DNA of 64,000 nucleotides, taken from NCBI GenBank assembly GCA_945948915.1, contig CAMFCQ010000001.1:32560-96559 (forward strand). The letters are read 5' to 3'. This document shows, piece by piece, positions 2,802 through 58,080 of the stretch; position 1 is the stretch's first letter; each line of letters starts with the position of its first letter. The notes below the pieces were generated by a model that had not been told where the DNA came from, ran no database searches, and saw only the letters and a program-made list of their open reading frames with translations. This DNA comes from an uncultured Clostridia bacterium (GTDB taxonomy: Bacteria; Bacillota; Clostridia; Christensenellales; Aristaeellaceae). The position numbers and the translations under genes were made by a program.

Positions 2802-4808
2802 TCAGCCGGCGCAGTCTTCTCTGCCGTCTGCCATCTGCATTTCATCCGCCTGAACCGCCGCAGAGTTCACCTCTTCCGGCGCGTGATACGTCGGCACGAC
2901 GCGCTTCATCGCCGCGCGCACCGTCTCATCATCCCCCGTAGCCGTCGCACTTCGAAGAATCGCAAGCTTCTCCTCAATCTCCGCGCGGCTGAGCGGCTTG
3001 TCCCGCTCGATGAAGATCATGCGGTTGTCGGTCTTGGTCAGCTCTTCCGTCTTGATGAGCAGCTCCTCATAGAGCTTCTCGCCCGGGCGCAGACCCGTCT
3101 CCACAATGTTGATGTCCCTGTATGGCTCGTAGCCGGACAGGCGGATCATGCTCTCCGCCAGCTCCTGAATCCGCACCGGACGGCCCATGTCCAGCACATA
3201 CAGCTCACCGTCTTTGGCCATCGCGCCGGACTCCAGCACCAGCTGGCTCGCCTCCGGGATGGTCATGAAATAGCGGATGATGCGCCTGTCCGTCAGCGTC
3301 ACCGGGCCGCCGGCCGCGATCTGCCGCCTGAACAGCGGGATGACCGAGCCGTTGCTGCCCAGCACGTTGCCAAAGCGCGTCGCGCTGAAGTTGGTGCTGC
3401 TGCCGCCGGCGCGGCTGAGCACGATCATCTCGCACATGCGCTTGGTCGCGCCCATCACGTTGGTGGGGTTGACCGCCTTGTCCGTGGAGATCATCGTGAA
3501 CTTCTTCACGCCGTGCTTTTCGGAGATCTCGACGATGTTCAGCGTGCCGAACACGTTGTTCTTGACCGCCTCGCAGCAGTTGTGCTCCATCAGCGGCACA
3601 TGCTTGTGCGCAGCCGCGTGCAGCACAATGTCCGGTCTGTAATGAGCAAAGACCCGATCAAGCGCCGCCCTGTCGCACACGGAGATGATCTCCACCTGCA
3701 CGTCGAGCGTCACGCCGTAGGCAATGCGCAGCTCCTGCTGGATATCGTACGCGCCGTTTTCATATTCGTCCAGGATCACTAGCTGCCTGGGCTTCATCTT
3801 GGCAATCTGCCTGCACAGCTCGCTGCCAATGGAACCGCCGCCGCCGGAGATGAGCACCGTCTTTCCGCGGTAATATGCGGACGTGCGCTCGTTGGTAAAC
3901 TCCATCGGCTGGCGGAAGAGCAGCTCCTCGATGTCAAACTCGCGCACACTGCGCCGGCCGTTTTCAACCGTCTGCGTCAGCGGATAGTCGTACACCTTGA
4001 GCTTGCAGCCCGTGGTCTTGTACTGATCGTACAGTTCCTTCTTGCGCTCCGCCTTCATTTCGGGCAGAGCAAACACGATCTCCTGAACCGGGTAGCTCAT
4101 CAGGCGCTCCTGCGTCGCTTCGCTTTCCGGGAGAACGGGAATGCCGTTGATCGTGCGGCCAATCTTCTCGCGGTCGATGTCGATGAAGCAGCACGGCCTG
4201 TATGCTGAACGCGGATTGTTGGCCAGCTCCTCCGCGAGCATGACGCCCACGCGCCCCGCGCCGACGACGGCAATGTTGATCTTCGGGGTCATGCCGCGGG
4301 CGCCGCTGTCGCGCTGCCCCGGCTGGTCGCTCAAGCCGGTAAAGCCCGCCGTCAGTCTGCGCAGCAGATTTGCCGCGCGGTTGTCGCCGTACTCATAGAG
4401 ATACTGGTACACAAAGCGGATCGTCATGCCAAACAGCAGATTCAGCGCAACAATGCACAGCGCGCGCACAAACGAGATCTTGAAGCGCACGGGCATCAGC
4501 AGGCCCTGCGCCGCAAAATAGGTGATGCCCGCAAGCAGATCCATCAGTATCATCTGCATGTAGGCCATCGTCCCGCCGTAGCGCCAGATCTGCCGATATA
4601 CGCCGCCGGCGATGCGCCAGCCAAAGATGCTCGCCGCGCCCAGCAGAATCTGCCCCACGATGGCGGCCGCCGCCAGGTGCTCGTCCTCACTGGGGTAGAT
4701 CACCAGCATCAGCACATCTACAAATAACAGCAGCGCCAGATCGCACAGCATCAGCTTGATCTTATGGTTCTGGCGGCTCTGCTCTGTCTGCCTGTTCCCC
4801 TGATTCAT
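2802..4808 (-). CDS. CapD/PglF-type membrane-anchored NDP-sugar 4,6-dehydratase (polysaccharide biosynthesis protein)
   Basis: N-terminal TM bundle followed by two Rossmann-like regions (VVGAGRVG, LISGGGGSIGSEL). The track ORF starts at 4919. I prefer ATG 4808 (MNQGNRQ...), which is preceded by AGGAAG. Confidence 0.8.
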   Translation of the reverse strand: MNQGNRQTEQSRQNHKIKLMLCDLALLLFVDVLMLVIYPSEDEHLAAAAIVGQILLGAASIFGWRIAGGVYRQIWRYGGTMAYMQMILMDLLAGITYFAAQGLLMPVRFKISFVRALCIVALNLLFGMTIRFVYQYLYEYGDNRAANLLRRLTAGFTGLSDQPGQRDSGARGMTPKINIAVVGAGRVGVMLAEELANNPRSAYRPCCFIDIDREKIGRTINGIPVLPESEATQERLMSYPVQEIVFALPEMKAERKKELYDQYKTTGCKLKVYDYPLTQTVENGRRSVREFDIEELLFRQPMEFTNERTSAYYRGKTVLISGGGGSIGSELCRQIAKMKPRQLVILDEYENGAYDIQQELRIAYGVTLDVQVEIISVCDRAALDRVFAHYRPDIVLHAAAHKHVPLMEHNCCEAVKNNVFGTLNIVEISEKHGVKKFTMISTDKAVNPTNVMGATKRMCEMIVLSRAGGSSTNFSATRFGNVLGSNGSVIPLFRRQIAAGGPVTLTDRRIIRYFMTIPEASQLVLESGAMAKDGELYVLDMGRPVRIQELAESMIRLSGYEPYRDINIVETGLRPGEKLYEELLIKTEELTKTDNRMIFIERDKPLSRAEIEEKLAILRSATATGDDETVRAAMKRVVPTYHAPEEVNSAAVQADEMQMADGREDCAG

Positions 4809-4968
4809 GTCTTCCTGTTCTTTCCCTTCTGCCTCTGTCCGGGAGCAGATACGGCAGTGATCCTTCACAGCTGCAGGAAATCCCCTTTCCCAACGTCTGC
4901 GATTTTCCTCATTATACATCTAGTGTCACATTTTTGCAACTAATCCGTATGTATTTTTTTAAGTTCTC

Positions 4969-5901
4969 TTAATAACTTGTCGAGTTCGGATAAATAATTC
5001 CATGAATCTTATTGATGCCGTAGGCCGGATCGATGATCAGCTTGGACGTGCCGTCTGAGCTGTCATACTTGAATTCGCCCTCTTCGGGATACGCATACAT
5101 CCGGATATCGGAGATGCCGGTGGTCATCATCTTGGTTGCCAGACCGATGATGTCAAACAGCGACATGTTCGTCGAAACATAGTCAAAGCACGTCGTCGCC
5201 AGAGAGATCATCTGCGGAATCGAGCTGTTGACGACCTCCCGGGCCATGGCCATGAGCAGCTTTCGCTGTCTGGCCTGGCGGCCAAAGTCGTTGTCCAGCT
5301 TGCGGATGCGTGCGTAGGCCAGCGCCTGCGCACCGCAGAGCCTCGCCTCCGTCGCATCGCTGGGGATGCGCTGAATCGGCGTGTCGCCGTAATCGCCGTA
5401 GGACTCCTCCACGGTCGTGTTGATCGCCCAGGGCTCGCTCTCCTCCAGCCGGATGGTCACGCCGCCCATCGTATCCACGATGTCGCAGATGCCGTAGAAG
5501 TTAACGGTCACATAGTTCTCGATGTTCAGGTTGTACGTCCGGTTGATCGTCTGCATCAGCAGGTTCGGTCCGCCGAAGGAATGCGCCGCATTGAGCTTGT
5601 TCTCGTGGCCGTTGTCGCCCATGGTCACCCAGGTATCGCGCGCCAGGGAGATGACGTTGACCACGCCCGTCGTCTGGTTGATCGAGCAGATCATCATCGT
5701 GTCGGCGCGGCCGGATGCCATCTCGTTTTCACGCGTGTCCGTACCGATGAGCAGGATGTTCTTCACATTCTTGTCAAGACCCTCGTACACGCTCAGGTCG
5801 CCATCCTTGACCGGCATGCTGTAATCGCCGAGCGCGCATGCCGGCAGCATCAGCGCCAGAAGCAGCGCGCAGAGCATCGCGCATATCCGTTTATTGACCA
5901 T
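4969..5901 (-). CDS. LCP family (LytR-CpsA-Psr) polymer-to-wall ligase
   Basis: Motifs NILLIGTDTRE....GRADTMMICSIN....ISLARDTWV are present. The N-terminus is a hydrophobic anchor with the lipobox-like sequence LMLPAC. Start moved to ATG 5901, which is preceded by AAGGAGAG; the track start is 5937. Confidence 0.8.
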   Translation of the reverse strand: MVNKRICAMLCALLLALMLPACALGDYSMPVKDGDLSVYEGLDKNVKNILLIGTDTRENEMASGRADTMMICSINQTTGVVNVISLARDTWVTMGDNGHENKLNAAHSFGGPNLLMQTINRTYNLNIENYVTVNFYGICDIVDTMGGVTIRLEESEPWAINTTVEESYGDYGDTPIQRIPSDATEARLCGAQALAYARIRKLDNDFGRQARQRKLLMAMAREVVNSSIPQMISLATTCFDYVSTNMSLFDIIGLATKMMTTGISDIRMYAYPEEGEFKYDSSDGTSKLIIDPAYGINKIHGIIYPNSTSY

Positions 5902-6589
5902 CGTTTGCCCTCTCCTTCTTCTGTGCCCGAAGCGCATCCGTCAGCCGGTTGTTCCTGGGCCATTCCCCGCGGAAGATCTTCTGTGCCTTTTCAAAGTCGT
6001 CATAATCCTCCGGCCTGTGCGCGTCCGAGGCGATATAGGCCGCCATACCTTCCTTGACCAGCTTCCTGGCCGTGCGCCGTTCAGCGCTCATCATGGGCGC
6101 CATCAGGCCGCAGGCATCCACCTGCAGCTCGCACCCCAGGTCGCGCATCTCGCTGGCAATGCCCAGATCGCGCTGAATATAGGCATAGCGCTCCGGATGC
6201 GCGATGATGGGCAGATACCCGGCATCCATCAGCTCGCTGAGGACGGCATCCCAGCGCGGCATCAGCTCGCTGCTGGAAAACTCGATCAGGATACAGCGCG
6301 TGCCGCTCAGACAGAACGCGTTCATCGCCTGCAGGCTGACATCATGGAACGCCCGATAGTTGAATTCGCAGCCCATGTTCAGCCCCAGGCCGAACTCATG
6401 CGCGATGCTCCTGGCGATGCGCAGGCTCCCGCGGTTTCTCTGCTGGTCCTCCGCGCGGTACACATGCGGCGTGGCGACGATGAACGTAATGCCCGCATCC
6501 GCCGCGCGCCCGGCCATATCATGCGCCATCTGCACATTTTTTGCGCCGTCATCCACGCCAGGCAGGATATGCACATGCATATCAATCAT
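5891..6589 (-). CDS. cpsB: PHP-family protein-tyrosine phosphatase of capsule loci (CpsB/YwqE type)
   Basis: N-terminus MIDMHVHILPGVDDGA, later VATPH and SDAH metal-binding motifs. It lies adjacent to a BY-kinase gene. Confidence 0.85.
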   Translation of the reverse strand: MIDMHVHILPGVDDGAKNVQMAHDMAGRAADAGITFIVATPHVYRAEDQQRNRGSLRIARSIAHEFGLGLNMGCEFNYRAFHDVSLQAMNAFCLSGTRCILIEFSSSELMPRWDAVLSELMDAGYLPIIAHPERYAYIQRDLGIASEMRDLGCELQVDACGLMAPMMSAERRTARKLVKEGMAAYIASDAHRPEDYDDFEKAQKIFRGEWPRNNRLTDALRAQKKERANDGQ

Positions 6590-6622
6590 CGCTCATTCTC
6601 CTTGCTGCGCATGTCTTCCCCA

Positions 6623-8062
6623 TCACTCCTCGTCATCCTGCTGCTCCCGGCGGCTGCTCAGGCCGCGGGTGCTGCGGCGCTCATGCTTGTGATGATCGCC
6701 ATATTTGTAGTAGCGGTTGTAGTAGTAGCTCTTCTGCTTGTGATTTACGAAGTTGAACACCAGGCCCAGCAGCTTGCCCTGTACCTGCTCCAGCTGAGCG
6801 AGCACCTTCGTCAGCTCCTTGCGCTCCACGCGGCCGTCCGCCACGACGACGATCGTGCCGTCCGTCTTGGCCGCCAGAGACGCCGCGTCGATAAACATGC
6901 CCAGCGGAGACGTGTCAAAGATCACCAGATCAAAGTACTGCTTACACTCCTCCAGGAAGCGGCCGAAGGACTCCAGATTCGCGTTCACTGCCATGCGGTG
7001 GTTGCTGTCCATGAAAAACAGGTTCGGCGTATTCGTGCGGGTGACCACCTCGGTCAGCTTCGCGCTGCCGTTCAGGTAGTCCATGATGTCCTTGCGGTTG
7101 CGCCGTCCCAGGTACCGGCCGATCATCGGGGAGCGATAGTCCATGTCCGCGATCAGCACGTTCTTGCCCTGGCTGGCCATCTCACAGGCCAGCATCAGGG
7201 AGACGGAGCTCTTGCCCTCCTTGGGCGTGGTGGAGGTGACGGTCAGCGTGCGCAGCGGCTCGCCCATCGCGGCGAACTCGATGTTCAGCGCCAGCTTTTT
7301 GATGCTCTCCTGCGTGTACTCGTTCATGCAGGCGAGGAGGTTGCTCTCTTTGGACAGCTGCTTTTTCAGGAACAGATCCATCTCCTTCTTGTAGCTGTAG
7401 ACATTGGAGAGGATGTTGGTCTTGAAGCGCACGTCCGCGTCGCTTTCAGCGCGCACCTTGGTATTGAGGACCTCCAGACCCACCAGCGCAAACGCCACCA
7501 GCGCCAGCGAAGCGAGCGCCGCCATGGGCACCATGGAGCCGCGGCCGCTGTTGGAGGGCCAGGTCGGCAGCGTCGCCTCGACGGCGACATGGAGGCTGTC
7601 CTGGTTCAGCATGTTGCGGATGTACTCAGAGAACACCTGACCCAGCATGTTGGCGGCCTCCATGCACATCTGCGGGTCGCGGCCCGTCACGCTGATGGTG
7701 ATGAAGCGCGTATCCTGCACGGCGCTGACGCCCACGGACATGCCGCCGGGCCAGCCCGGCCAGCCAAGGCGGCTGCAGGTTTCCTGCAGAACCGCCGGGG
7801 TCTGAATGAGCTCCTTGTAGTCGTTGACGAAGTACGCGCTCGAGGACAGGTCGTAGCGCGTGGTGCCGGTGGAATCGACGTAATCAAACAGCGTATACAG
7901 CTTGACCTGCGCCGTATACACATCCACCGTGTAATTGATGACGTACATATTGGCCAGAACGGCCACGACAATCGGGATGATGACCATCAGATACCATCTG
8001 CGCTTGAGCGCTTTGAGCATGTCACCCAGGGACAGTCCCAGTTCTTCTTCCACAGTATCCAC
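6623..8062 (-). CDS. Fused Wzz-like chain-length modulator + BY tyrosine kinase (CpsC-CpsD in one polypeptide)
   Basis: The N-terminal half has two TM segments flanking an extracytoplasmic domain. The C-terminal half has Walker A (TSTTPKEGKSSVS), Walker A'/B-like motifs (VLIADMD, LVIFDTSP) and a Tyr-rich tail (KSYYYNRYYKYG). Confidence 0.8.
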   Translation of the reverse strand: MDTVEEELGLSLGDMLKALKRRWYLMVIIPIVVAVLANMYVINYTVDVYTAQVKLYTLFDYVDSTGTTRYDLSSSAYFVNDYKELIQTPAVLQETCSRLGWPGWPGGMSVGVSAVQDTRFITISVTGRDPQMCMEAANMLGQVFSEYIRNMLNQDSLHVAVEATLPTWPSNSGRGSMVPMAALASLALVAFALVGLEVLNTKVRAESDADVRFKTNILSNVYSYKKEMDLFLKKQLSKESNLLACMNEYTQESIKKLALNIEFAAMGEPLRTLTVTSTTPKEGKSSVSLMLACEMASQGKNVLIADMDYRSPMIGRYLGRRNRKDIMDYLNGSAKLTEVVTRTNTPNLFFMDSNHRMAVNANLESFGRFLEECKQYFDLVIFDTSPLGMFIDAASLAAKTDGTIVVVADGRVERKELTKVLAQLEQVQGKLLGLVFNFVNHKQKSYYYNRYYKYGDHHKHERRSTRGLSSRREQQDDEE

Positions 8063-8107
8063 TCTCCTTTGGTTCAGTTGAATTGCATTGACGTTGTGAC
8101 AAGGCGG

Positions 8108-17189: not shown

Positions 17190-17651
17190 TCAGCGGATAA
17201 AATGTGCATATGCCTGGGCAATCAGCGGGCGAAGCGGGATGAGCTTTGTCCATACGCGCGCAAAGAACGTCCACCAGAAATCCCCGGGCTCGATGAGCCT
17301 GCCCTTGCGCCTGACGCGCGTGATGATCGCAAAGATCTGATCTCGGCGCACGCCGCGCTCGATTTCCGTCTGCGCGTCGCCGATGATGTCGTAGACCTCA
17401 CCGCGCGCGCGCAGGATGCGGTGCATGACGTATTGCCCATTGTCCCGCTGGTAAAACACGATATCGCCTGCGCGCAGCGGGCGATCCGGCTTCCGGAAAT
17501 AAATCGTATCGCGCAGGTGGATGAGGAACGGACTCATGCTGCTGCCCGAGACCAGCATGCTGACCTCGTGCCCCTCCTCCACCAGACCGCGCAGCACACC
17601 GACGTATTCCGCCGTATTGACCCGCCGCACAGCTGGCTTCTTCTGTTCCAT
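17190..17651 (-). CDS. S24/S26-family serine peptidase, Ser/His (SipW/ER-like) type, without an N-terminal membrane anchor
   Basis: SGSSMSPFL provides the nucleophile Ser, GDIVFY the beta-strand, and YVMHRIL a His where bacterial type I SPases have Lys. The N-terminus (MEQKKPAVRRVNTAEYVG) is not hydrophobic. ATG 17651 lies 2 nt after the stop of the upstream gene; the track start is 17687. Confidence 0.65.
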   Translation of the reverse strand: MEQKKPAVRRVNTAEYVGVLRGLVEEGHEVSMLVSGSSMSPFLIHLRDTIYFRKPDRPLRAGDIVFYQRDNGQYVMHRILRARGEVYDIIGDAQTEIERGVRRDQIFAIITRVRRKGRLIEPGDFWWTFFARVWTKLIPLRPLIAQAYAHFIR

Positions 17652-17653
17652 CG

Positions 17654-18523
17654 TCACTTCGCCTTTCTGAGCTCGTTTTCCAGACACGCGACCGCTTCCT
17701 CCGAGATCGTGCAGCTCAAATGGTAGACCGGCACCTGCGTAGCCAGCTGCTCAATCAGGTCCATCGCCCGCCGCTGCGCGTCCCGGTTCCAGAAATTGAC
17801 GGTGATCTGGCTGTAAATCTGCGTAAACGCCGCAAACGGCTCAAGCCGGCTGACGGTGTTTTCCTTGCCCTGACTGAGCATCACGATTGCGCGGATGGGC
17901 ATGGCCTCGTCATGGCACACGCCCGAGGAGCCGCACACCGGCCAGCCGCCTGCCGTCCACACGCCGTCCACCGCGCGCAGCAGCCCCCTGTCGCCGTTGA
18001 CGACGCGCGTGCCGCGGTGCTTCTCCCAGAGCGTCGCCTGCGTCGTCTTGCCCGTGCCGCTGGGCGCGGAAAAGAGGATCGCCTTCCCTTCCCATTCCAT
18101 GTAGGCGCAGTGCAGCACAAGGGCGTCCCTGCGCATCATGTGCCGCTCCATGGCGAACATCGCCAGAAACATGGGATCCGGCCATGTCGCGCCGGCTGCC
18201 GCGCTGACCATCAGGATCGTCGCGCGGCAAGCGTCCTCCTCGCGGTAGCAGGCGTAAAACCCGGGCGTGCCCATCACGCCGATATAGCGCATCTCCAGCC
18301 CATCCTGCTCAAACACCGCCAGATCGGGCCGCTGCGCAATCAATCTGCCGCGCGGCTGGGGGAAGCTGTCTGTCAGCTCCAGCGTATAGGTATAGGAAGG
18401 CTCGCCCGCGTCCCGGGCAAACAGCATGAAGTTCTCCGGCGGCGTCACGCTGTCCGGGCAAATCAGCCGAAAACAGAAATCCCCGATTGCAAATGTCCTG
18501 TCCACGGCGCGCACCTCCTGCAT
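17654..18523 (-). CDS. Uncharacterised P-loop protein resembling the HPr-kinase C-terminal domain (HprK-like)
   Basis: 289 aa. Walker A is FSAPSGTGKTTQATLW, followed by VVNGDRGLL. The N-terminal half has no motifs I recognise. An alternative start is GVG-free GTG 18505, 8 nt after AGGAGG. The family call is tentative. Confidence 0.45.
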   Translation of the reverse strand: MQEVRAVDRTFAIGDFCFRLICPDSVTPPENFMLFARDAGEPSYTYTLELTDSFPQPRGRLIAQRPDLAVFEQDGLEMRYIGVMGTPGFYACYREEDACRATILMVSAAAGATWPDPMFLAMFAMERHMMRRDALVLHCAYMEWEGKAILFSAPSGTGKTTQATLWEKHRGTRVVNGDRGLLRAVDGVWTAGGWPVCGSSGVCHDEAMPIRAIVMLSQGKENTVSRLEPFAAFTQIYSQITVNFWNRDAQRRAMDLIEQLATQVPVYHLSCTISEEAVACLENELRKAK

Positions 18524-18585: not shown

Positions 18586-19797
18586 TCATGCTTCCTCGTC
18601 CAGCAGCGCCGCCGCGCCCGGGAGCATCGCGATGCTGCGCCCCAGCACGCCGTGCATCAGCGCGATGGCCACCCCGTAGTTGACCACGGGCACGCCCGCC
18701 TGTTTGGCGCGCGCGACGCGCGTCTTCATCACCTGCTCGGTGAGCATGCAGCCGCCGCAGTGCACGATGAGCGCATAGCCGCTCAGATCCTCCGGGAACT
18801 CATTGCCCGAGCAGAACGCAAACGCCGGCTTCTTTCCCGTATAGCCCTCGATCCAGCGCGGGAGCTTCACGCTGCCGATGTCGTTGCACTGGCGGTGATG
18901 CGTGCAGCCCTCGGCGATGAGCACCCTGTCGCCGTCCCGCAGACGCCTCAGCGCCGCCGCACCGCGCAGCTGTGTCTCAAGACCGCCCTTGTAGCGGGCC
19001 ATGAGGATCGAAAACGACGTGAGCGCGATCTCCTCCGGCACGTCCTCTGATACCTGGCCAAACGCCTGCGAGTCTGTGATCACCAGCTTCGGCTTCACCG
19101 CCAGCATATTGAGCGTCGCGCTGACCTCCGTGTCCTGGCAGACGACGGCCGTCATGTGGTGATCCAGCAGCTCGCGCAGCGTCTGCTGCTGGGGCAGAAT
19201 CAGCCGGCCCTTGGGCGCGGCCTCGTCCACCGGCACGACCAGCAGCGCCAGATCCCCGGGCGAAAGCAGGTCCGCGACAATACAGCGTTCCTGCTTCATC
19301 GGGCCGGCCAGGCGGCCGAGCATCTCCTTGAGCGCATGCACACCCTCGCCCGTCTCCGCGCTGACGTACAGCTCGTTTTCGGAAAGCGGCGTGCGCTCGC
19401 CCAGCAGGTCGCACTTGCTGAAGCAGACGATGTGCGGCAGCTTCCGCTCCTCAAAGATCGCTCGCAGCGCGCGGTCCTCCTCGCGCATGCCCGCTTCTCC
19501 GTCCACCACCAGCACGGCGATGTTCACCGTATCCAGCGTCTGACGTGCGCGCGCGGCGCGCATCTCGCCCAGCTTGCCCTCGTCATCCAGGCCGGGCGTG
19601 TCGATGATGACCACCGGCCCCAGCGGCAGCAGCTCCATCGCCTTCTTGACCGGATCGGTCGTCGTACCCTTCACCTCGGAGACCAGCGACAGCGCCTGTC
19701 CGGTCACCGCATTGACGAGGCTCGATTTGCCCGCATTGCGCATGCCGAAAAAGCCGATGTGCAGCCGCTCAGAAGACGGAACATGGGTCAGGCTCAT
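18586..19797 (-). CDS. hydF: [FeFe]-hydrogenase H-cluster maturation GTPase HydF
   Basis: N-terminal GTPase motifs (GMRNAGKSSLVNA, DTPGLDD, SKCD). C-terminal Cys motifs are CTHH and HCGGC. It is adjacent to hydG and hydE. Confidence 0.9.
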   Translation of the reverse strand: MSLTHVPSSERLHIGFFGMRNAGKSSLVNAVTGQALSLVSEVKGTTTDPVKKAMELLPLGPVVIIDTPGLDDEGKLGEMRAARARQTLDTVNIAVLVVDGEAGMREEDRALRAIFEERKLPHIVCFSKCDLLGERTPLSENELYVSAETGEGVHALKEMLGRLAGPMKQERCIVADLLSPGDLALLVVPVDEAAPKGRLILPQQQTLRELLDHHMTAVVCQDTEVSATLNMLAVKPKLVITDSQAFGQVSEDVPEEIALTSFSILMARYKGGLETQLRGAAALRRLRDGDRVLIAEGCTHHRQCNDIGSVKLPRWIEGYTGKKPAFAFCSGNEFPEDLSGYALIVHCGGCMLTEQVMKTRVARAKQAGVPVVNYGVAIALMHGVLGRSIAMLPGAAALLDEEA

Positions 19798-19809
19798 GTT
19801 GATTCCTCC

Positions 19810-21258
19810 TTAGAATCTGAAGTCGCGACGGTTGGAGCTGCGGATCGCCTCGATGTTCTCCCTGGCAATCGCGCGCACCTTGTCCTTGGGAATGCGCGCA
19901 AGCTCCCGCTCGATCATCTCAAAGCCGACCTTCTTCGTCTCCTCGCTCGCATAGTCCGTCAGAAACTCGGTCAGCGTCATCAGCGCGTTGGGATGGCAGC
20001 AGTTGAGAATCTGGCCGCTCTTGCACAGGCTCATGAACCGGTCGCCCGTGCGGCCCTCGCGGTAGCAGGCCGTGCAGAAGGACGGCACATGGCCGTTTTC
20101 CATCAGCCAGCGCACCACCTCATCCAGCGAGCGCTGATCGGAGACGTCGAACTGCTCCGTGTCGTGCGGGCGCTCCGCCTCAGCGTAGCCGCCCACGCTC
20201 GTGCGGGACGCGCCGCTGACCTGGGACACGCCCAGGTGAAGCAGCCTGCCGCGCACCTCCTCGCTCTCGCGGGTGGAGACGATGATGCCGGTGTACGGCA
20301 CGGCCAGGCGGATGCAGGCGGTGATCTTCTCAAAGATCTCGTCGGAGATACCGTTGTCGAACTGATCCGGATCGATGTCCGACGCGCGCTTGAGCCGCGG
20401 CACGCTGATGGTGTGCGGGCCGACGCCGTGCACGGCCTCCAGGTGCTCCGCGTGCATGATGAGCCCGGCGAACTCGTACTTGTACAGCTCCAGGCCGAAG
20501 AGCACGCCCAGGCCCACGTCGTCGATGCCGCCCTCCATGGCGCGGTCCATCGCCTCGGTGTGGTAGTCGTAGTCGTGCTTGGGGCCGGTGGGATGCAGCT
20601 GCAGGTAGCTTTCCTTGTGGTACGTCTCCTGGAAGAGGATGTAGGTGCCGATGCCCGCGTCCTTGAGTTTGCGGTAGTTTTCCACCGTCGTCGCGGCGAT
20701 GTTCACGTTCACGCGGCGGATCGCGCCGTTTTTGTGGTTGACGGAGTAGATCGTTTTGATGCACTCCAGGATGTACTCGATCGGGTTGTTCTTCGGGTCC
20801 TCGCCCGCCTCGATCGCCAGGCGCTTGTGGCCCATGTCCTGCAGCGCGATGACTTCCTTCCTGACCTCCTCCTGCGTCAGCTTGCGGCGCGGGATGGTCT
20901 TGTTCTTCATGTGGTACGGGCAGTAGACGCAGCCGTTCACGCAGTAATTGGACAGGTACAGCGGCGCGAAGATGACGATGCGGTTGCCGTAGAACGCCTG
21001 CTTGATCTCGCCCGCGATCTCGTAGATTTTCTGCACCTTTTCAGGGATCTCGCAGGCCAGCAGCACGCTCGCCTCCCGGTGCGTCAGGCCCGCGCAGGTG
21101 CAGCCGGTCGCCGTCTTCCTCGGGCGCGCCTTTTCAAGGATCGCGTCGATCAGCTCGACGTTGTTCTTGTTCGCCTCGGCGTAAGCCAGCGTCTCGCGGA
21201 TCTCGCCGTCGTTGATGAATTCCTCCGCATGGAGGGACTTGGGATTGTAGCTTGCCAT
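19810..21258 (-). CDS. hydG: [FeFe]-hydrogenase maturase HydG (radical SAM, tyrosine lyase)
   Basis: 482 aa with radical-SAM motif CVNGCVYCPY and the C-terminal auxiliary cluster motif CTACYREGRTGDRFMSLCKSGQILNCCHPN. Confidence 0.9.
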   Translation of the reverse strand: MASYNPKSLHAEEFINDGEIRETLAYAEANKNNVELIDAILEKARPRKTATGCTCAGLTHREASVLLACEIPEKVQKIYEIAGEIKQAFYGNRIVIFAPLYLSNYCVNGCVYCPYHMKNKTIPRRKLTQEEVRKEVIALQDMGHKRLAIEAGEDPKNNPIEYILECIKTIYSVNHKNGAIRRVNVNIAATTVENYRKLKDAGIGTYILFQETYHKESYLQLHPTGPKHDYDYHTEAMDRAMEGGIDDVGLGVLFGLELYKYEFAGLIMHAEHLEAVHGVGPHTISVPRLKRASDIDPDQFDNGISDEIFEKITACIRLAVPYTGIIVSTRESEEVRGRLLHLGVSQVSGASRTSVGGYAEAERPHDTEQFDVSDQRSLDEVVRWLMENGHVPSFCTACYREGRTGDRFMSLCKSGQILNCCHPNALMTLTEFLTDYASEETKKVGFEMIERELARIPKDKVRAIARENIEAIRSSNRRDFRF

Positions 21259-21315
21259 GCTTTTTCTTCCTTTCTTGGGGTCAGAAGCTCTTCCCCGTCA
21301 GATGTGTCATTCGTT

Positions 21316-22368
21316 TCAATTGGATGGATAATCGCCGCGGGCCGTCACGATTTCATAGCCGATCGCAGCCATGCTTTGCCGCAGATGCGCAACGCATTGC
21401 GCGGACTCGTCTCCGTCGGAGAGCTTGTTGTTGTACAGCTCGTACTTCTTTCGCACCGCCGCGGGCGACAGGTTGGGCATCACGACGTTCGCCCCGGCGA
21501 GGATCCCCTTTTCCCGGCCCTTGGGATCGATGGAGCCCAGCGCCGTCGTCGCCGGGAGCAGCGCGTTCGGGTGAATCAGCCGGATGACGGACAGCAGATA
21601 ACAGGTCAGCTCCACTGTCCCGGCCGGGTGGCCTGCAAACGGCGTCGCCGCGTGCGGAATGAACGGCCCGATGCCCACCATCTGCGGCGCAAATTCCTCG
21701 ATGAACTTGAGATCCGCCGCCAGCTCCCGTGTCGTCTGATGCGGCGAACCGACCATGAATCCGCAGCCCACCTGATACCCCAGCGCCTTGAGCTCCCGCA
21801 GGCAGCGCATGCGGTTGGCAAAGGACATCTCCGCGGGGTGCAGTCTCGCGTAGTGCGCGGGGCTGGCCGTCTCGTGGCGCAGCAGATAGCGGTCCGCACC
21901 CGCCTCGCGCAGGCGCGCATAGCTCTCATCCCCCCGCTCGCCCAGAGACAGCGTCACTGCGCAGTCCGGATAGCGCGCCTTGATTGCGCGCACGATGTCC
22001 GTCATCACCTCGTCGGTGAAGAAGGCGTCCTCGCCGCCCTGCATCACGAATGTGCGGAAGCCCAGCGCGTAGCCCTCCTCGCAGCAGGTCAGGATATCGT
22101 CCTTCTCAAGCCGGTAGCGCACGCAGCTCCGGTTGCTCCTGCGGATGCCGCAGTACAGGCAGTCGTTTTTGCAGATGTTGCTGATCTCTATCAGCCCGCG
22201 AATGAACACACGATTGCCGTAAACCTCTCGCCGCACCGCGTCCGCCCGGGCTGCAAGCAGCCTCGCCGCTTCCCCGTCCCGCCCGTCGATCAGCTGTGCG
22301 TATTCCTCCACGCTCAGCGCATGGTTTTCGCACAGCCTGTCAATCAGTGCGCGGATCGTCTCAGTCAT
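21316..22368 (-). CDS. hydE: [FeFe]-hydrogenase maturase HydE (radical SAM)
   Basis: 350 aa with CKNDCLYCGIRRSN and BioB-like architecture. It sits between the TM1266-like gene and hydG. Confidence 0.9.
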   Translation of the reverse strand: MTETIRALIDRLCENHALSVEEYAQLIDGRDGEAARLLAARADAVRREVYGNRVFIRGLIEISNICKNDCLYCGIRRSNRSCVRYRLEKDDILTCCEEGYALGFRTFVMQGGEDAFFTDEVMTDIVRAIKARYPDCAVTLSLGERGDESYARLREAGADRYLLRHETASPAHYARLHPAEMSFANRMRCLRELKALGYQVGCGFMVGSPHQTTRELAADLKFIEEFAPQMVGIGPFIPHAATPFAGHPAGTVELTCYLLSVIRLIHPNALLPATTALGSIDPKGREKGILAGANVVMPNLSPAAVRKKYELYNNKLSDGDESAQCVAHLRQSMAAIGYEIVTARGDYPSN

Positions 22369-22618
22369 GGAAGCTCACGCTGGAGAACGAGGTCTTCACG
22401 CTCACGCCTGCCATCTTGCCGATCTTGCCCGAGAGCGCGGAGATCGTATCCTGCGGCGCGTCCAGCGCGATGGAGATGAGGCTGATCTTCCTCTTGCGGT
22501 AGGGGATGCCCATCCGCCCGATGATGTACTCGCCATACTCGTGCAGCACGCCGTTCACCTGCTCCACGGCGTCCATGTCTTCAATGATGATGCTCATCAC
22601 GGCCACGCGGTTGTCCAT
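22361..22618 (-). CDS. TM1266-type small ACT-like protein (putative iron-only hydrogenase system regulator)
   Basis: MDNRVAVMSIIIEDMDAVEQVNGVLHEYGEYIIGRMGIPYRKRKISLISIALDAPQDTISALSGKIGKM. ATG 22618 is preceded by AGGAGG. It overlaps the hydE start by 8 nt. The track start at 22672 lies inside the terminator hairpin. Confidence 0.75.
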   Translation of the reverse strand: MDNRVAVMSIIIEDMDAVEQVNGVLHEYGEYIIGRMGIPYRKRKISLISIALDAPQDTISALSGKIGKMAGVSVKTSFSSVSFHD

Positions 22619-46171: not shown

Positions 46172-46248
46172 GGATTGATAGCTCAGTCGGTTAGAGCACC
46201 CGCCTGATAAGCGGGAGGTCGGTGGTTCGAGTCCACTTCAATCCACCA
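46172..46248 (+). tRNA. tRNA-Ile (anticodon GAT), CCA encoded
   Basis: Cloverleaf folded by hand. The acceptor stem is GGATTGA/TCAATCC, the anticodon arm is CCCGC-CTGATAA-GCGGG, and the T arm is GGTGG-TTCGAGT-CCACT. Confidence 0.9.
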
Positions 46249-46251
46249 TAT

Positions 46252-46326
<75 letters not shown>

Positions 46327-56304: not shown

Positions 56305-56366
56305 TATGTATCCATTTTGGGCTTTGTTGTCAAATGAGAAAGGAGACTTCCAAGATGATACCATTA

Positions 56367-56384
56367 CCCCCCCCCCAAAAAAAA
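56367..56384 (+). repeat. Homopolymeric C10 A8 tract between the RBS/ATG and the ORF body
   Basis: Read directly: CCATTA-CCCCCCCCCC-AAAAAAAA-TCACC. ATG 56355 (AAGGAG lies 9 nt upstream) is 61 nt from TTG 56416, so it is 1 nt out of frame. Confidence 0.8.
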
Positions 56385-56415
56385 TCACCTCCAAAAGAAA
56401 CTTCTTCATCTTCGT

Positions 56416-58080
56416 TTGAAGGTATTGATTCCCGCACTTTTGCTTATTCTTGCTGTCTGCTTCACTGCAAAGAGTACCTATTTCGCAACAGAATTCTATC
56501 TTGACGGCGACGCTTCCAGCGAACTGGTGCTCTCACATCATTTAGCTGAAACCGGACAGATTCTTTCCTCCGACTGGTATTACTCTACTGAGCTGCGCGT
56601 GCTCAATACTCAGCTTATCTATGCACCCCTCTTTCACATTTTTTCAGACTGGCATATGGTTCGTTTCACCGCAGCTCTGATCATGCAGGTCTTACTTGTG
56701 TTGTCCTTTGCTTACCTATGCAAACAATCCTCACTATCACTTGGTGCCTTCTTTCTGGGTGCAGCACTTCTCATTTCTCCGACCAGCATTGCTTATGGGC
56801 GAATTGTCCTGTACCATTGTTACTATATGCCGCACATCATCATCGGTTTTATGATCGTCGGATTGTATCTTTCTTCAATTCATAAGCACCAGCAGAGACA
56901 GCTTTTCTCTTATATTGTTCGTTTCTTTCTTCTCATCACTATCTCTTTCCTGAGCGGATTAGGCGGCATACGTCAGCTTGCCATTACGCACGCTCCATTG
57001 TGCCTGCTTCCCCTCTTTCTTTTCTTTCGTACCGAGTCAGACGCACCCGTCATATCGACAGTTTCAAAGAAACGCGTCTATCTGATTCCGGCTTTCTGTG
57101 CCGCCTTGTTCGCTTTTGTCGGTCTTGTTGTCAATATATCGTTTCTTGCGCAGCAATACACTTTCCGCAACAACACCGCCCTTACATTTGAGCTTATCGA
57201 TTCAAATGGATTGAGCAATCTCTTCTATGCTATCCTGCACCTGTTCGGATTCCAAAAGGGTGCGTCTTTGTTAACAATAGCAGGAATTGCCTCTCTCGGA
57301 AGTGTTTGCATCGCAGTATACTGTATTTTCTTGAGCCTAAGACAATTATTATGCTCCTCAAATTCCGTTCAGGAATACTCTGCCAGCATCACCTCGCACT
57401 TTGGCATCAGCGTTTTCTTGATTCTTCTCGCTATTTTTATTATCGTTGGATCCGGTTTTGCTTTTTTCCATGCACTATACCTGATTCCTGCTACGGTATG
57501 GTTTATCCCTTTCCTCTGCGTTCAATATGACAAATCTCATTTCAGCATTTTGAGTTTCAAAACAGCCGATGCATTGCTGGTATGTGTACTCATCCTTTAT
57601 ATTCCTACCATTGGAACCAACATTCGTTTTTTCACACCGCATCCCGATTCTTACATTCTGCGTTATGAAGGTCTCCCCTATAGAGACAGCAACCTCGTTC
57701 CGCAGTTGGAAAAGTGCGTTCAGACACTGTCAGATTTAGGTTATTCTTTGGGCTATTCAACCCACTGGAATGCCAATACAATCACAGAAATGACTGATGG
57801 CCAAATCAAAATGATCGGCCTTGAATTACAAACCGGCGATACTTCAACCGATAGCAAAGATACGCTTCCATCTCTATCTTATCAAAAATGGCTGTCACTC
57901 AAATCCTATCTTGACACGAAACCTGAGAAGGTCTTCCTTCTGCTGTCTTCCGAAGAAAACGAATCCTATCTGGAAATACCGTTTGATGACAAGGGGCAAG
58001 TGATCTATGAAGACGACGGCAACTTCATCATCTACGGCTTTGATGAGCCCGCTGCACTTTATCGTATGATCGAATGGTAA
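56416..58080 (+). CDS. Polytopic membrane protein with C-terminal extracytoplasmic domain, GT-C-like (putative glycan-modifying glycosyltransferase); N-terminus probably frameshifted
   Basis: 554 aa from a TTG start, visibly AT-rich codon usage, ~11 TM segments, an acidic first loop (YLDGDASSE) and a ~150-aa soluble C-terminus. The in-frame region upstream of the TTG is open back to 56359. The fold and family call is inference from topology only. Confidence 0.55.
   Translation: MKVLIPALLLILAVCFTAKSTYFATEFYLDGDASSELVLSHHLAETGQILSSDWYYSTELRVLNTQLIYAPLFHIFSDWHMVRFTAALIMQVLLVLSFAYLCKQSSLSLGAFFLGAALLISPTSIAYGRIVLYHCYYMPHIIIGFMIVGLYLSSIHKHQQRQLFSYIVRFFLLITISFLSGLGGIRQLAITHAPLCLLPLFLFFRTESDAPVISTVSKKRVYLIPAFCAALFAFVGLVVNISFLAQQYTFRNNTALTFELIDSNGLSNLFYAILHLFGFQKGASLLTIAGIASLGSVCIAVYCIFLSLRQLLCSSNSVQEYSASITSHFGISVFLILLAIFIIVGSGFAFFHALYLIPATVWFIPFLCVQYDKSHFSILSFKTADALLVCVLILYIPTIGTNIRFFTPHPDSYILRYEGLPYRDSNLVPQLEKCVQTLSDLGYSLGYSTHWNANTITEMTDGQIKMIGLELQTGDTSTDSKDTLPSLSYQKWLSLKSYLDTKPEKVFLLLSSEENESYLEIPFDDKGQVIYEDDGNFIIYGFDEPAALYRMIEW

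Follow-up and report, generated by a model that had tools for sequence, protein, structure and literature searches.

A gene pair beside hydF in an uncultured Clostridia bacterium probably belongs to a capsule-linked peptide-maturation cassette

We analysed a stretch of 64,000 nucleotides from an uncultured Clostridia bacterium (contig CAMFCQ010000001.1, positions 32,560 to 96,559; hereafter the window), in which two minus-strand open reading frames (ORFs) lie directly downstream of hydF, behind the [FeFe]-hydrogenase maturation genes. The first encodes a P-loop protein of the ScmC type with an HprK/PEPCK-like fold, and the second a peptidase-like protein with an S24/S26 fold. An earlier note, made from the sequence, had placed both ORFs correctly and offered two readings of the pair: an accessory module of hydrogenase maturation, or a two-gene system that has nothing to do with the operon carrying it. 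Our comparisons favour the second. The two genes are very probably the surviving kinase-like and leader-peptidase-like parts of a widespread peptide-maturation cassette rather than hydrogenase factors, and we are slightly more confident still that they belong with cassettes built around a radical S-adenosylmethionine (rSAM) enzyme and a PqqD-type protein, and are unrelated to hydrogenase maturation. The pair is at its usual site, the head of an exopolysaccharide (EPS) locus, and the hyd operon is merely the next neighbour upstream.

Gene neighbourhoods and the full cassette

Homologues of the P-loop protein were collected from one genome per GTDB species, which yielded at least 426 confirmed ScmC loci; the 80 most similar were analysed with 10-kb flanks. 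Metagenomes were scanned for the peptidase and returned at least 360 loci, of which 80 were examined, 57 of them spanning 8 kb or more. The pair thus points to a large family. Within 10 kb of ScmC, an rSAM gene outside the hyd set was present in 73 of the 80 species loci and a PqqD gene in 63, followed by a precursor-like ORF (59/80), an ATP-binding cassette (ABC) exporter (about 49/80), an S24-like gene (44/80) and NTP_transf_5 (39/80). The statement in the earlier note that kinases of this kind recur in peptide-maturation cassettes is therefore well founded. The same partners surround the S24-like gene in the 57 longer metagenome loci: ABC exporter in 48, ScmC in 46, rSAM in 40, PqqD in 36 and NTP_transf_5 in 35. 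By comparison, hydF occurs within 10 kb of ScmC in three of the 80 species loci, all of them the closest relatives of the window (65-86% identity), and neither hydF within 10 kb nor any other hyd gene was found near the S24-like gene in the 80 metagenome loci. In these loci, homologues of the pair lie mostly away from hyd genes, an outcome that the earlier note had named as evidence against a hydrogenase role.

A second constant of these neighbourhoods is the capsule machinery. The tyrosine kinase gene (BY-kinase) and cpsB each accompany the S24-like gene in 35 of 57 metagenome loci, and 37 (BY-kinase) and 31 (cpsB) of the 80 species loci have them no more than 10 kb from ScmC. At about half of the loci, this association is too frequent to be put down to chance. 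Hosts of the cassette include human-gut and rumen Lachnospiraceae and Oscillospiraceae as well as Prevotella and Bacteroides; among cultured carriers, Sellimonas caecigallum JCM 35759 (L026), Coprococcus catus (L037) and Anaeromassilibacillus senegalensis (L022) have it in compact form.

The canonical gene order is (NTP_transf_5)-PqqD-precursor-rSAM-ScmC-ABC-S24, with the exporter gene between ScmC and the peptidase, and in two loci (L011 and L026) a contiguous series runs from NTP_transf_5 through PqqD, precursor, rSAM, ScmC, ABC and S24 to cpsB. The rSAM proteins align over their full length with SPASM-type maturases (ScmE, PapB and that of mycofactocin), at scores that in each case stay under the cut-off. 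The candidate precursor is an ORF of about 125-150 residues (typically ~130) situated between PqqD and rSAM; it has no match in Pfam or NCBIfam and is annotated solely as 'hypothetical'. Among 84 such ORFs, a leader of the form [YWF]xxPx(L/M/I/V/T/F) is present in 71 and a NEYVAAC-like motif, exactly 13 residues past the leader Tyr, in 64; 75 end in Ser. The V-A-A ahead of the first Cys would resemble an AXA-type S26 cleavage site. As a family, the precursors follow the pattern [YW]xxPx(hydrophobic)x4FxxNEYVAAC, with four conserved Cys, a 'THEA' motif and the C-terminal Ser (often as WETAKS). They often occur in two or three copies per locus; examples are L001 8392-8781, L011 8349-8810, L026 8347-8772 and L075 8194-8799.

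These features recall the lasso peptides. In lasso leaders, a YxxPxL motif at -17 to -12 is bound by PqqD-type B1 proteins (PMC10368454), and the conserved Ser at the end of a lasso precursor is phosphorylated by homologues of HPr kinase (PadeK, ThcoK and PsmK), after which the nucleotidyltransferase homologue PsmN decorates it (PMC9266682). In common with lasso precursors (PMC9266682; PMC10368454), those of the cassette have a leader of the YxxPx(L) type and a C-terminal Ser that is conserved, ScmC is by fold a P-loop protein of the HPr-kinase superfamily, and in related cassettes it co-occurs with a PqqD-type RiPP recognition element (RiPP, peptide made on the ribosome and modified after translation) and an NTP_transf-type enzyme. 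As judged from its genes, the cassette appears to reuse the lasso recognition and tailoring trio, with an rSAM enzyme and an S26-like peptidase replacing the cyclase and the B2 protease. Neither the Asn-synthetase-like lasso cyclase nor a B2 protease belongs to the cassette, since the contiguous gene orders of L011 and L026 leave no room for them and the Pfam gene calls show neither. The two systems also differ in precursor length, ~130 residues here against ~40 in lasso clusters, and in the kinase, as ScmC has no Pfam Hpr_kinase_C match and apparently keeps one of the two catalytic Asp.

A close named relative is the SynChlorMet (SCM) cassette, which consists of ScmC, ScmD (a PqqD protein) and the radical SAM/SPASM proteins ScmE and ScmF (TIGR04249-04251, PF27840). 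ScmC is the best NCBIfam match of the P-loop protein, homologues of the protein are annotated PF27840, and ScmC of relatives stands beside PqqD and an rSAM gene whose product aligns full-length with ScmE. However, the window protein scores far under the ScmC equivalog cut-off (36.6 versus 125 bits), the hosts here are gut Clostridia and Bacteroidota, and the cassette has in addition NTP_transf_5, the ABC exporter, the S24-like peptidase and a precursor of ~130 aa that can be recognised. It is also linked to capsule loci, and its window copy is devoid of rSAM and PqqD. Literature searches for ScmC, SynChlorMet, HprK-related kinase, NTP_transf_5 and HPr-rel-A came back empty, and those for RiPP, kinase and rSAM combinations returned lasso reviews alone, with no paper or curated family for the precursor or the cassette. 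Apparently, it is an undescribed variant of the rSAM/PqqD/HprK-like cassettes. It would be unusual in joining lasso-style leader recognition and C-terminal-Ser tailoring to radical-SAM chemistry, in having an S26-type peptidase where RiPP clusters normally have other proteases, in the length of its substrate, and in its systematic attachment to capsule loci.

Two further traits vary between loci. A calcineurin-like metallophosphoesterase lies beside NTP_transf_5 and PqqD in 14 of the 80 loci (for instance L001 1102-1971 and L075 5931-6818) and may reverse or remodel the phospho-Ser proposed below. Two ScmC paralogues within 10 kb of each other occur in about eight of the 80 loci (divergent copies in L016, L024, L048, L058/L088, L067, L070 and L081), while a ninth listed locus resembles a single gene interrupted by a frameshift. 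The second copy of L088, orthologous to the window gene, has a called length of just 147 aa and could reflect truncation or misassembly.

The P-loop protein and the peptidase

The longest ORF of the P-loop gene encodes 289 residues. Orthologues are 283 aa long, start at a GTG and have no counterpart of the window ATG at 18523; the window gene read from GTG 18505-18503 also gives 283 residues, and a GGAGG-like box and the GTG are retained in the orthologues. This GTG is probably the true start and ATG 18523 is not, so that the spacer to hydF measures about 80 nt instead of the 62 nt given earlier. At the other end of the gene, the TGA (17656-17654) is followed after two nucleotides by the peptidase ATG (17651-17649). 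The coordinates on which a translational coupling had been proposed are thus correct, although the two genes abut and do not overlap.

Profile searches gave ScmC-, S24- and S26-like matches to the two proteins, all of them below the curated cut-offs. For the P-loop protein, the best NCBIfam matches are ScmC (TIGR04249) and HprK_rel_A (28 bits, likewise under its cut-off). The assignment to PF27840 'ScmC' comes from the precomputed Pfam annotation of 120 homologues among the matches listed, not from that of the window protein. No match to Pfam Hpr_kinase_C (PF07475) was obtained at E<=1, and PDB sequence searches with the full profile and with the isolated P-loop domain gave nothing meaningful. 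Since the sequence searches were empty, the link to HprK and PEPCK comes from fold comparison. The AlphaFold2 (AF2) model (predicted local distance difference test score, pLDDT, 92.6) matches PEPCK with E 3e-8 and HprK/P with E 8e-6 in Foldseek, both at probability 1.0, which upholds the earlier description of an HprK-like P-loop protein. PEPCK is covered across both domains and HprK/P across the kinase domain alone; the N-terminal domain aligns with PEPCK and not with that of bacterial HprK/P.

The SAPSGTGKTT P-loop is essentially invariant among ScmC homologues, and H138, the Walker-A residue K159 and D178 are invariant in 46 sequences; their designation as a His/Lys/Asp catalytic set is by motif resemblance, not by residue alignment to HprK/P or PadeK. 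With HprK/P and ATP-PEPCK the family shares the predicted fold and a Walker A GxGK[TS] with a conserved His before it. It differs from them in having no similarity at the sequence level, in its N-terminal domain and in its genomic context, and by an additional invariant set of C197, C203, H268 and C271.

This set (GWPVCGxSxxC ... HLxCTIS; ~17711-17935, minus strand) is invariant in all 46 homologues and may form a metal or Fe-S site. HprK/P and PEPCK are not known to have an equivalent.

The peptidase, whose homologues are labelled 'S24/S26 family peptidase' by PGAP, scores 21.1 bits against Pfam S24 (PF00717; gathering score 23.3), 21.3 against the archaeal/ER-type signal peptidase model TIGR02228 (cut-off 51.85) and 12.8 against the SipW model (cut-off 190). 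Its active-site boxes are far clearer. In 41 homologues, G36, S38, M39 and P41 of a GSSMSP box and H77, R78 and I79 of an MHRI box are invariant, and a profile search found a weak match to human SEC11A (E 0.046) in which GSSMSP pairs with SGSMEP and MHRI with VHRV. His thus takes the place of the Lys in the Ser/Lys dyad of S24 enzymes such as LexA and UmuD. The AF2 model (pLDDT 86.8) matches SipA, SpsB and the C-terminal domain of LexA. There is no transmembrane segment and no N-terminal anchor (maximum 19-residue hydropathy 0.79), and a conserved aromatic-rich helix occupies residues 125-152 at the C-terminus. The anchor-less Ser/His peptidase of the S26 type described earlier is well supported by these results, which point to a soluble S26B-type enzyme with a predicted Ser38/His77 dyad. 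An alternative start at GTG 17687 (165 aa) was rejected, given that most listed homologues have 145-160 residues and the closest of them have 153, counted from the ATG.

Among known peptidases, the S26B signal peptidases SipW and Sec11 share the GxSMxP ... HR[IV] boxes and the S24/S26 beta-barrel, whereas the window protein has no transmembrane anchor, misses the curated cut-offs, ends in the aromatic helix and belongs to a gene family that adjoins an ABC exporter and ScmC rather than secreted substrates. The S24 peptidases LexA and UmuD share the fold of the LexA C-terminal domain but use Ser/Lys. A precedent is offered by SodX, the protease of Ni-SOD maturation: it is soluble, belongs to S26, and its trimming of an N-terminal propeptide takes place in the cytoplasm. 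It is likewise anchor-less, and one relative weakly matches the NiSOD maturation protease model.

Locus history, transcription and competing explanations

Comparison with sister contigs shows how hydF and the pair became neighbours. In the next-closest lineages (L088/L058, ~65-68% identity), hydG-hydF is followed by a terminator hairpin, a GDPD and a major facilitator superfamily (MFS) gene, both on the opposite strand, and then by a cassette in the order precursor, ScmC', rSAM, PqqD, ScmC, ABC, S24. Another relative (L087) has the opposite-strand MFS gene, ScmC, ABC, S24 and a giant protein. In the window and in L008, L090, L093 and L094, all genes between hydF and ScmC are gone, and so is the ABC gene. 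Deletions in this lineage thus took the hydF terminator and the two divergent genes, as well as the precursor/ScmC'/rSAM/PqqD block and the ABC gene that normally stands between ScmC and S24. As a consequence, ScmC-S24 came to abut hydF with a conserved promoter-like element of its own.

That element lies in the spacer between hydF and ScmC. Its core, GCTTGACGG...AAAC.TG.TAC.CT, is invariant in six sequences, among them L007, where the gene on its 5' side is the divergent MFS gene and not hydF; the sequence immediately downstream varies freely. Because the core is kept with or without hydF upstream, amid variable downstream sequence, the element belongs to ScmC. A consensus scan missed it because its -10 hexamer matches at just three of six positions. 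The spacer was earlier described as having no hairpin or T-tract, which agrees with our scan and with its unremarkable folding (z = -0.88), but with the promoter-like element it is not featureless. Along the minus strand, no terminator was found between a hairpin in the hyd leader (22671-22645) and the one that closes the pair, in agreement with the earlier assignment of the latter as the first terminator downstream of the leader. A single transcript from the regulator gene to the peptidase had been predicted on these grounds. Its premise, that hydF has no terminator on its 3' side, is correct, while the conserved ScmC element and the terminators of the sister lineages (a bidirectional hairpin directly 3' of hydF in L007, and a terminator hairpin in L088) weaken the prediction, which we regard as uncertain. 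Read-through from hydF into the pair is possible as a by-product of the deletion history.

What might a peptidase and a kinase-like protein do without a cassette around them? In two related contigs with the hydF-ScmC-S24 order, a second cassette lies at the far end of the EPS locus, some 38-39 kb downstream and on the same strand (L075 with L094, and L077 with L008). It comprises three GT2 genes, DUF6625, an FrhB-like gene, Metallophos, NTP_transf_5, precursor, rSAM, ScmC'', PqqD and ABC; each copy has a precursor and no S24 gene, so that, within the contig sequence examined, the peptidase alone is absent. The equivalent position lies past the low end of the window. We infer a split system, in which the pair would act in trans and supply the peptidase and a second kinase paralogue to the distal cassette.

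A full cassette of this type comprises the ~130-aa precursor (lasso-like [YW]xxPx(L/M/V) leader, NEYVAAC, conserved Cys, C-terminal Ser), a PqqD-type chaperone, a SPASM-like rSAM maturase, ScmC as a single gene or two paralogues, the S24-like peptidase and an ABC exporter. NTP_transf_5 and a metallophosphoesterase are frequent additions, and its usual site is the head of a capsule/EPS locus. In the mechanism we propose, PqqD would bind the precursor leader, the rSAM enzyme would modify the Cys-containing core, ScmC would phosphorylate the C-terminal Ser in the manner of PadeK and PsmK from lasso clusters, the leader would be cut off near NEYVAA|C by the S24-like enzyme, and the ABC protein would export the product. 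These biochemical roles and the relationship in trans are tentative, and we give them at best an even chance.

More speculatively, and with the likelihood rather against it, the cassettes of gut Clostridia and Bacteroidota might define an undescribed maturation class linked to capsule loci: a ~130-aa protein with a lasso-type leader, cross-linked by the rSAM enzyme, phosphorylated (perhaps also glycosylated or nucleotidylated) at its C-terminal Ser by the HprK-like kinase and NTP_transf_5, trimmed in the cytoplasm by the S26-type Ser/His peptidase (which would then constitute a new kind of RiPP leader peptidase) and exported by the ABC protein. Its product could act on the capsule machinery or together with it, for instance by signalling to BY-kinase/CpsB or by carrying polysaccharide, and here the system would be split around the EPS locus. 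Should the cassette affect capsule production, it would be relevant to surface control in gut commensals.

Several observations weigh against assigning the pair to such a cassette. The window itself contains no precursor, rSAM, PqqD, NTP_transf_5 or second ScmC, as searched by tBLASTn, a hidden Markov model of 39 precursors and a leader regular expression. The partner in trans is proposed from the two related contigs rather than from this genome; the second cassette has a divergent precursor (E ~1e-6), which in L077 does not end in Ser. The peptidase falls under every curated family cut-off in Pfam and NCBIfam, and the P-loop protein has no sequence-level HprK/P match in Pfam or in the PDB searches. 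ScmC has a single Asp in an NGD motif, with a second Asp not evident, at a place where HprK/P presumably carries DD. The lasso kinases are reported to require a His-Lys-Asp-Asp set (PMC9266682). Finally, the order hydF-ScmC-S24 is kept in at least five assemblies of the clade (the window, L008, L090, L093 and L094), and co-transcription with the hyd genes is possible since no terminator follows hydF.

The strongest competitor to a cassette origin, although improbable, is that the pair forms an autonomous module that serves the adjacent surface/EPS locus, for example by processing the secreted RHS giant encoded next to it or by regulating BY-kinase/CpsB. Downstream of the pair, the window contains genes for the RHS giant, BY-kinase, CpsB, a LytR-CpsA-Psr (LCP) protein, CapD, a sugar transferase, a GT4 glycosyltransferase and EpsG, and in all close relatives (L087, L090-L095 and the window) the S24-like gene is followed by the RHS giant and then BY-kinase. 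Such a module could also draw on its own promoter-like element and terminator, and L087 keeps ScmC-ABC-S24 without precursor, rSAM or PqqD in the sequence available. However, the giant occurs in two of 80 ScmC loci and none of 80 S24-like loci, and the conserved partners are the cassette genes. As a substrate of the pair, the giant was rejected: most loci do not have it, its signal peptide is an ordinary one, for which a soluble cytoplasmic peptidase could not serve as signal peptidase, and it does not end in Ser.

Homologues of the giant measure 2840-3015 aa in L087, L090 and L094; the copies in L091-L093 and L095 are truncated.

That the pair is transcribed together with hydE, hydG and hydF and assists [FeFe]-hydrogenase maturation as an accessory module is very improbable. 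The pair lies on the same strand some 80 nt past hydF, with no terminator before its own, and the gene order is shared by the five assemblies named above. Against this stand the rarity of hydF near either homologue (3/80 and 0/80), the two opposite-strand genes and the terminator hairpin between hydF and the cassette in the next-closest lineages, and the conserved element that belongs to ScmC. HydE, HydF and HydG suffice for H-cluster assembly. No proteolytic step is known in [FeFe] maturation, and HydA is not known to require one. A likeness to the [NiFe] endopeptidases HybD and HycI is confined to a protease gene beside hydrogenase maturation genes, whereas fold and family are unrelated (S24/S26 here) and the neighbourhoods show no functional link. 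For hydrogenase biology the result is a negative one: here the canonical HydE/HydF/HydG set requires neither a further kinase nor a further protease, and a deletion explains the adjacency.

It is equally improbable that the cassette has decayed and left the pair behind as a non-functional remnant bound for loss. Although the rSAM, PqqD and precursor genes next to the two genes and the ABC gene between them have been deleted, neither ORF is disrupted in any assembly examined, the catalytic Ser/His and P-loop/His/Asp residues are invariant, the pair has kept its promoter-like element, its ribosome-binding site and its terminator, and the ratios of nonsynonymous to synonymous substitution (dN/dS) are low (0.20-0.24 for ScmC and 0.10-0.12 for the peptidase, window versus L008, L090 and L093), like that of hydF (0.20-0.22, window versus L008 and L090), which indicates purifying selection.

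Layout of the window and other features

All four genes upstream of the pair pass NCBIfam cut-offs, in keeping with the earlier naming of a TM1266-type regulator, hydE, hydG and hydF. Coordinates of these genes, of the pair and of the EPS genes are listed in Table 1.

Table 1. Features of the window discussed in the text
Feature	Coordinates	Strand	Evidence or remark
TM1266-type regulator	22361-22618	minus	NCBIfam TIGR03959, 113 bits, passes cut-off
hydE	21316-22368	minus	NCBIfam, passes cut-off
hydG	19810-21258	minus	NCBIfam, passes cut-off
hydF	18586-19797	minus	NCBIfam TIGR03918, 537 bits, passes cut-off
hyd block upstream of the pair	18586-22618	minus	NCBIfam and Pfam matches above cut-offs
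Promoter-like element	18576-18548	minus	-35 TTGACG (18576-18571), 17-nt spacer, extended -10 TGaTACGCT (18556-18548)
Ribosome-binding site AGGAGG	18519-18514	minus	8 nt 5' of GTG 18505, read from sequence
P-loop protein, ScmC family, HprK/PEPCK fold	17654-18523 (longest ORF)	minus	ORF, homologues, AF2 model
S24/S26-fold peptidase-like protein, 153 aa	17190-17651	minus	ORF, sub-threshold Pfam/NCBIfam matches, AF2 model
Intrinsic terminator closing the pair	17184-17150	minus	16-bp stem and T-run; terminator scan and sequence
Secreted RHS/YD-repeat giant, 2969 aa	8108-17017	minus	Pfam RHS_repeat
Wzz/BY-kinase	6626-8107	minus	Pfam
CpsB phosphatase	5894-6592	minus	Pfam
LytR-CpsA-Psr	4972-5940	minus	Pfam
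CapD-like	2805-4919	minus	Pfam
Sugar transferase	2081-2773	minus	Pfam
GT4	976-2163	minus	Pfam
EpsG	3-1007	minus	Pfam

The hairpin in the 5' leader of the hyd operon is strong and terminator-like (11-bp stem and T-run) and sits between a promoter-like site (22775-22747) and the start of the TM1266-type gene (~22618), which suggests control by attenuation or a riboswitch-type mechanism. An Rfam scan of the whole window returned two tRNAs only, and the hairpin, which matches no Rfam family, is thus not accounted for by any known riboswitch. The two tRNA genes (RF00005) are adjacent, at 46172-46323 on the plus strand. Neither protein of the pair matches any defence system in PADLOC. Elsewhere in the window, a plus-strand ORF (56359-58077) stands out by its atypical composition, with a GC content at third codon positions of 0.47 against ~0.8-0.9 in neighbouring genes, and may have been acquired horizontally.

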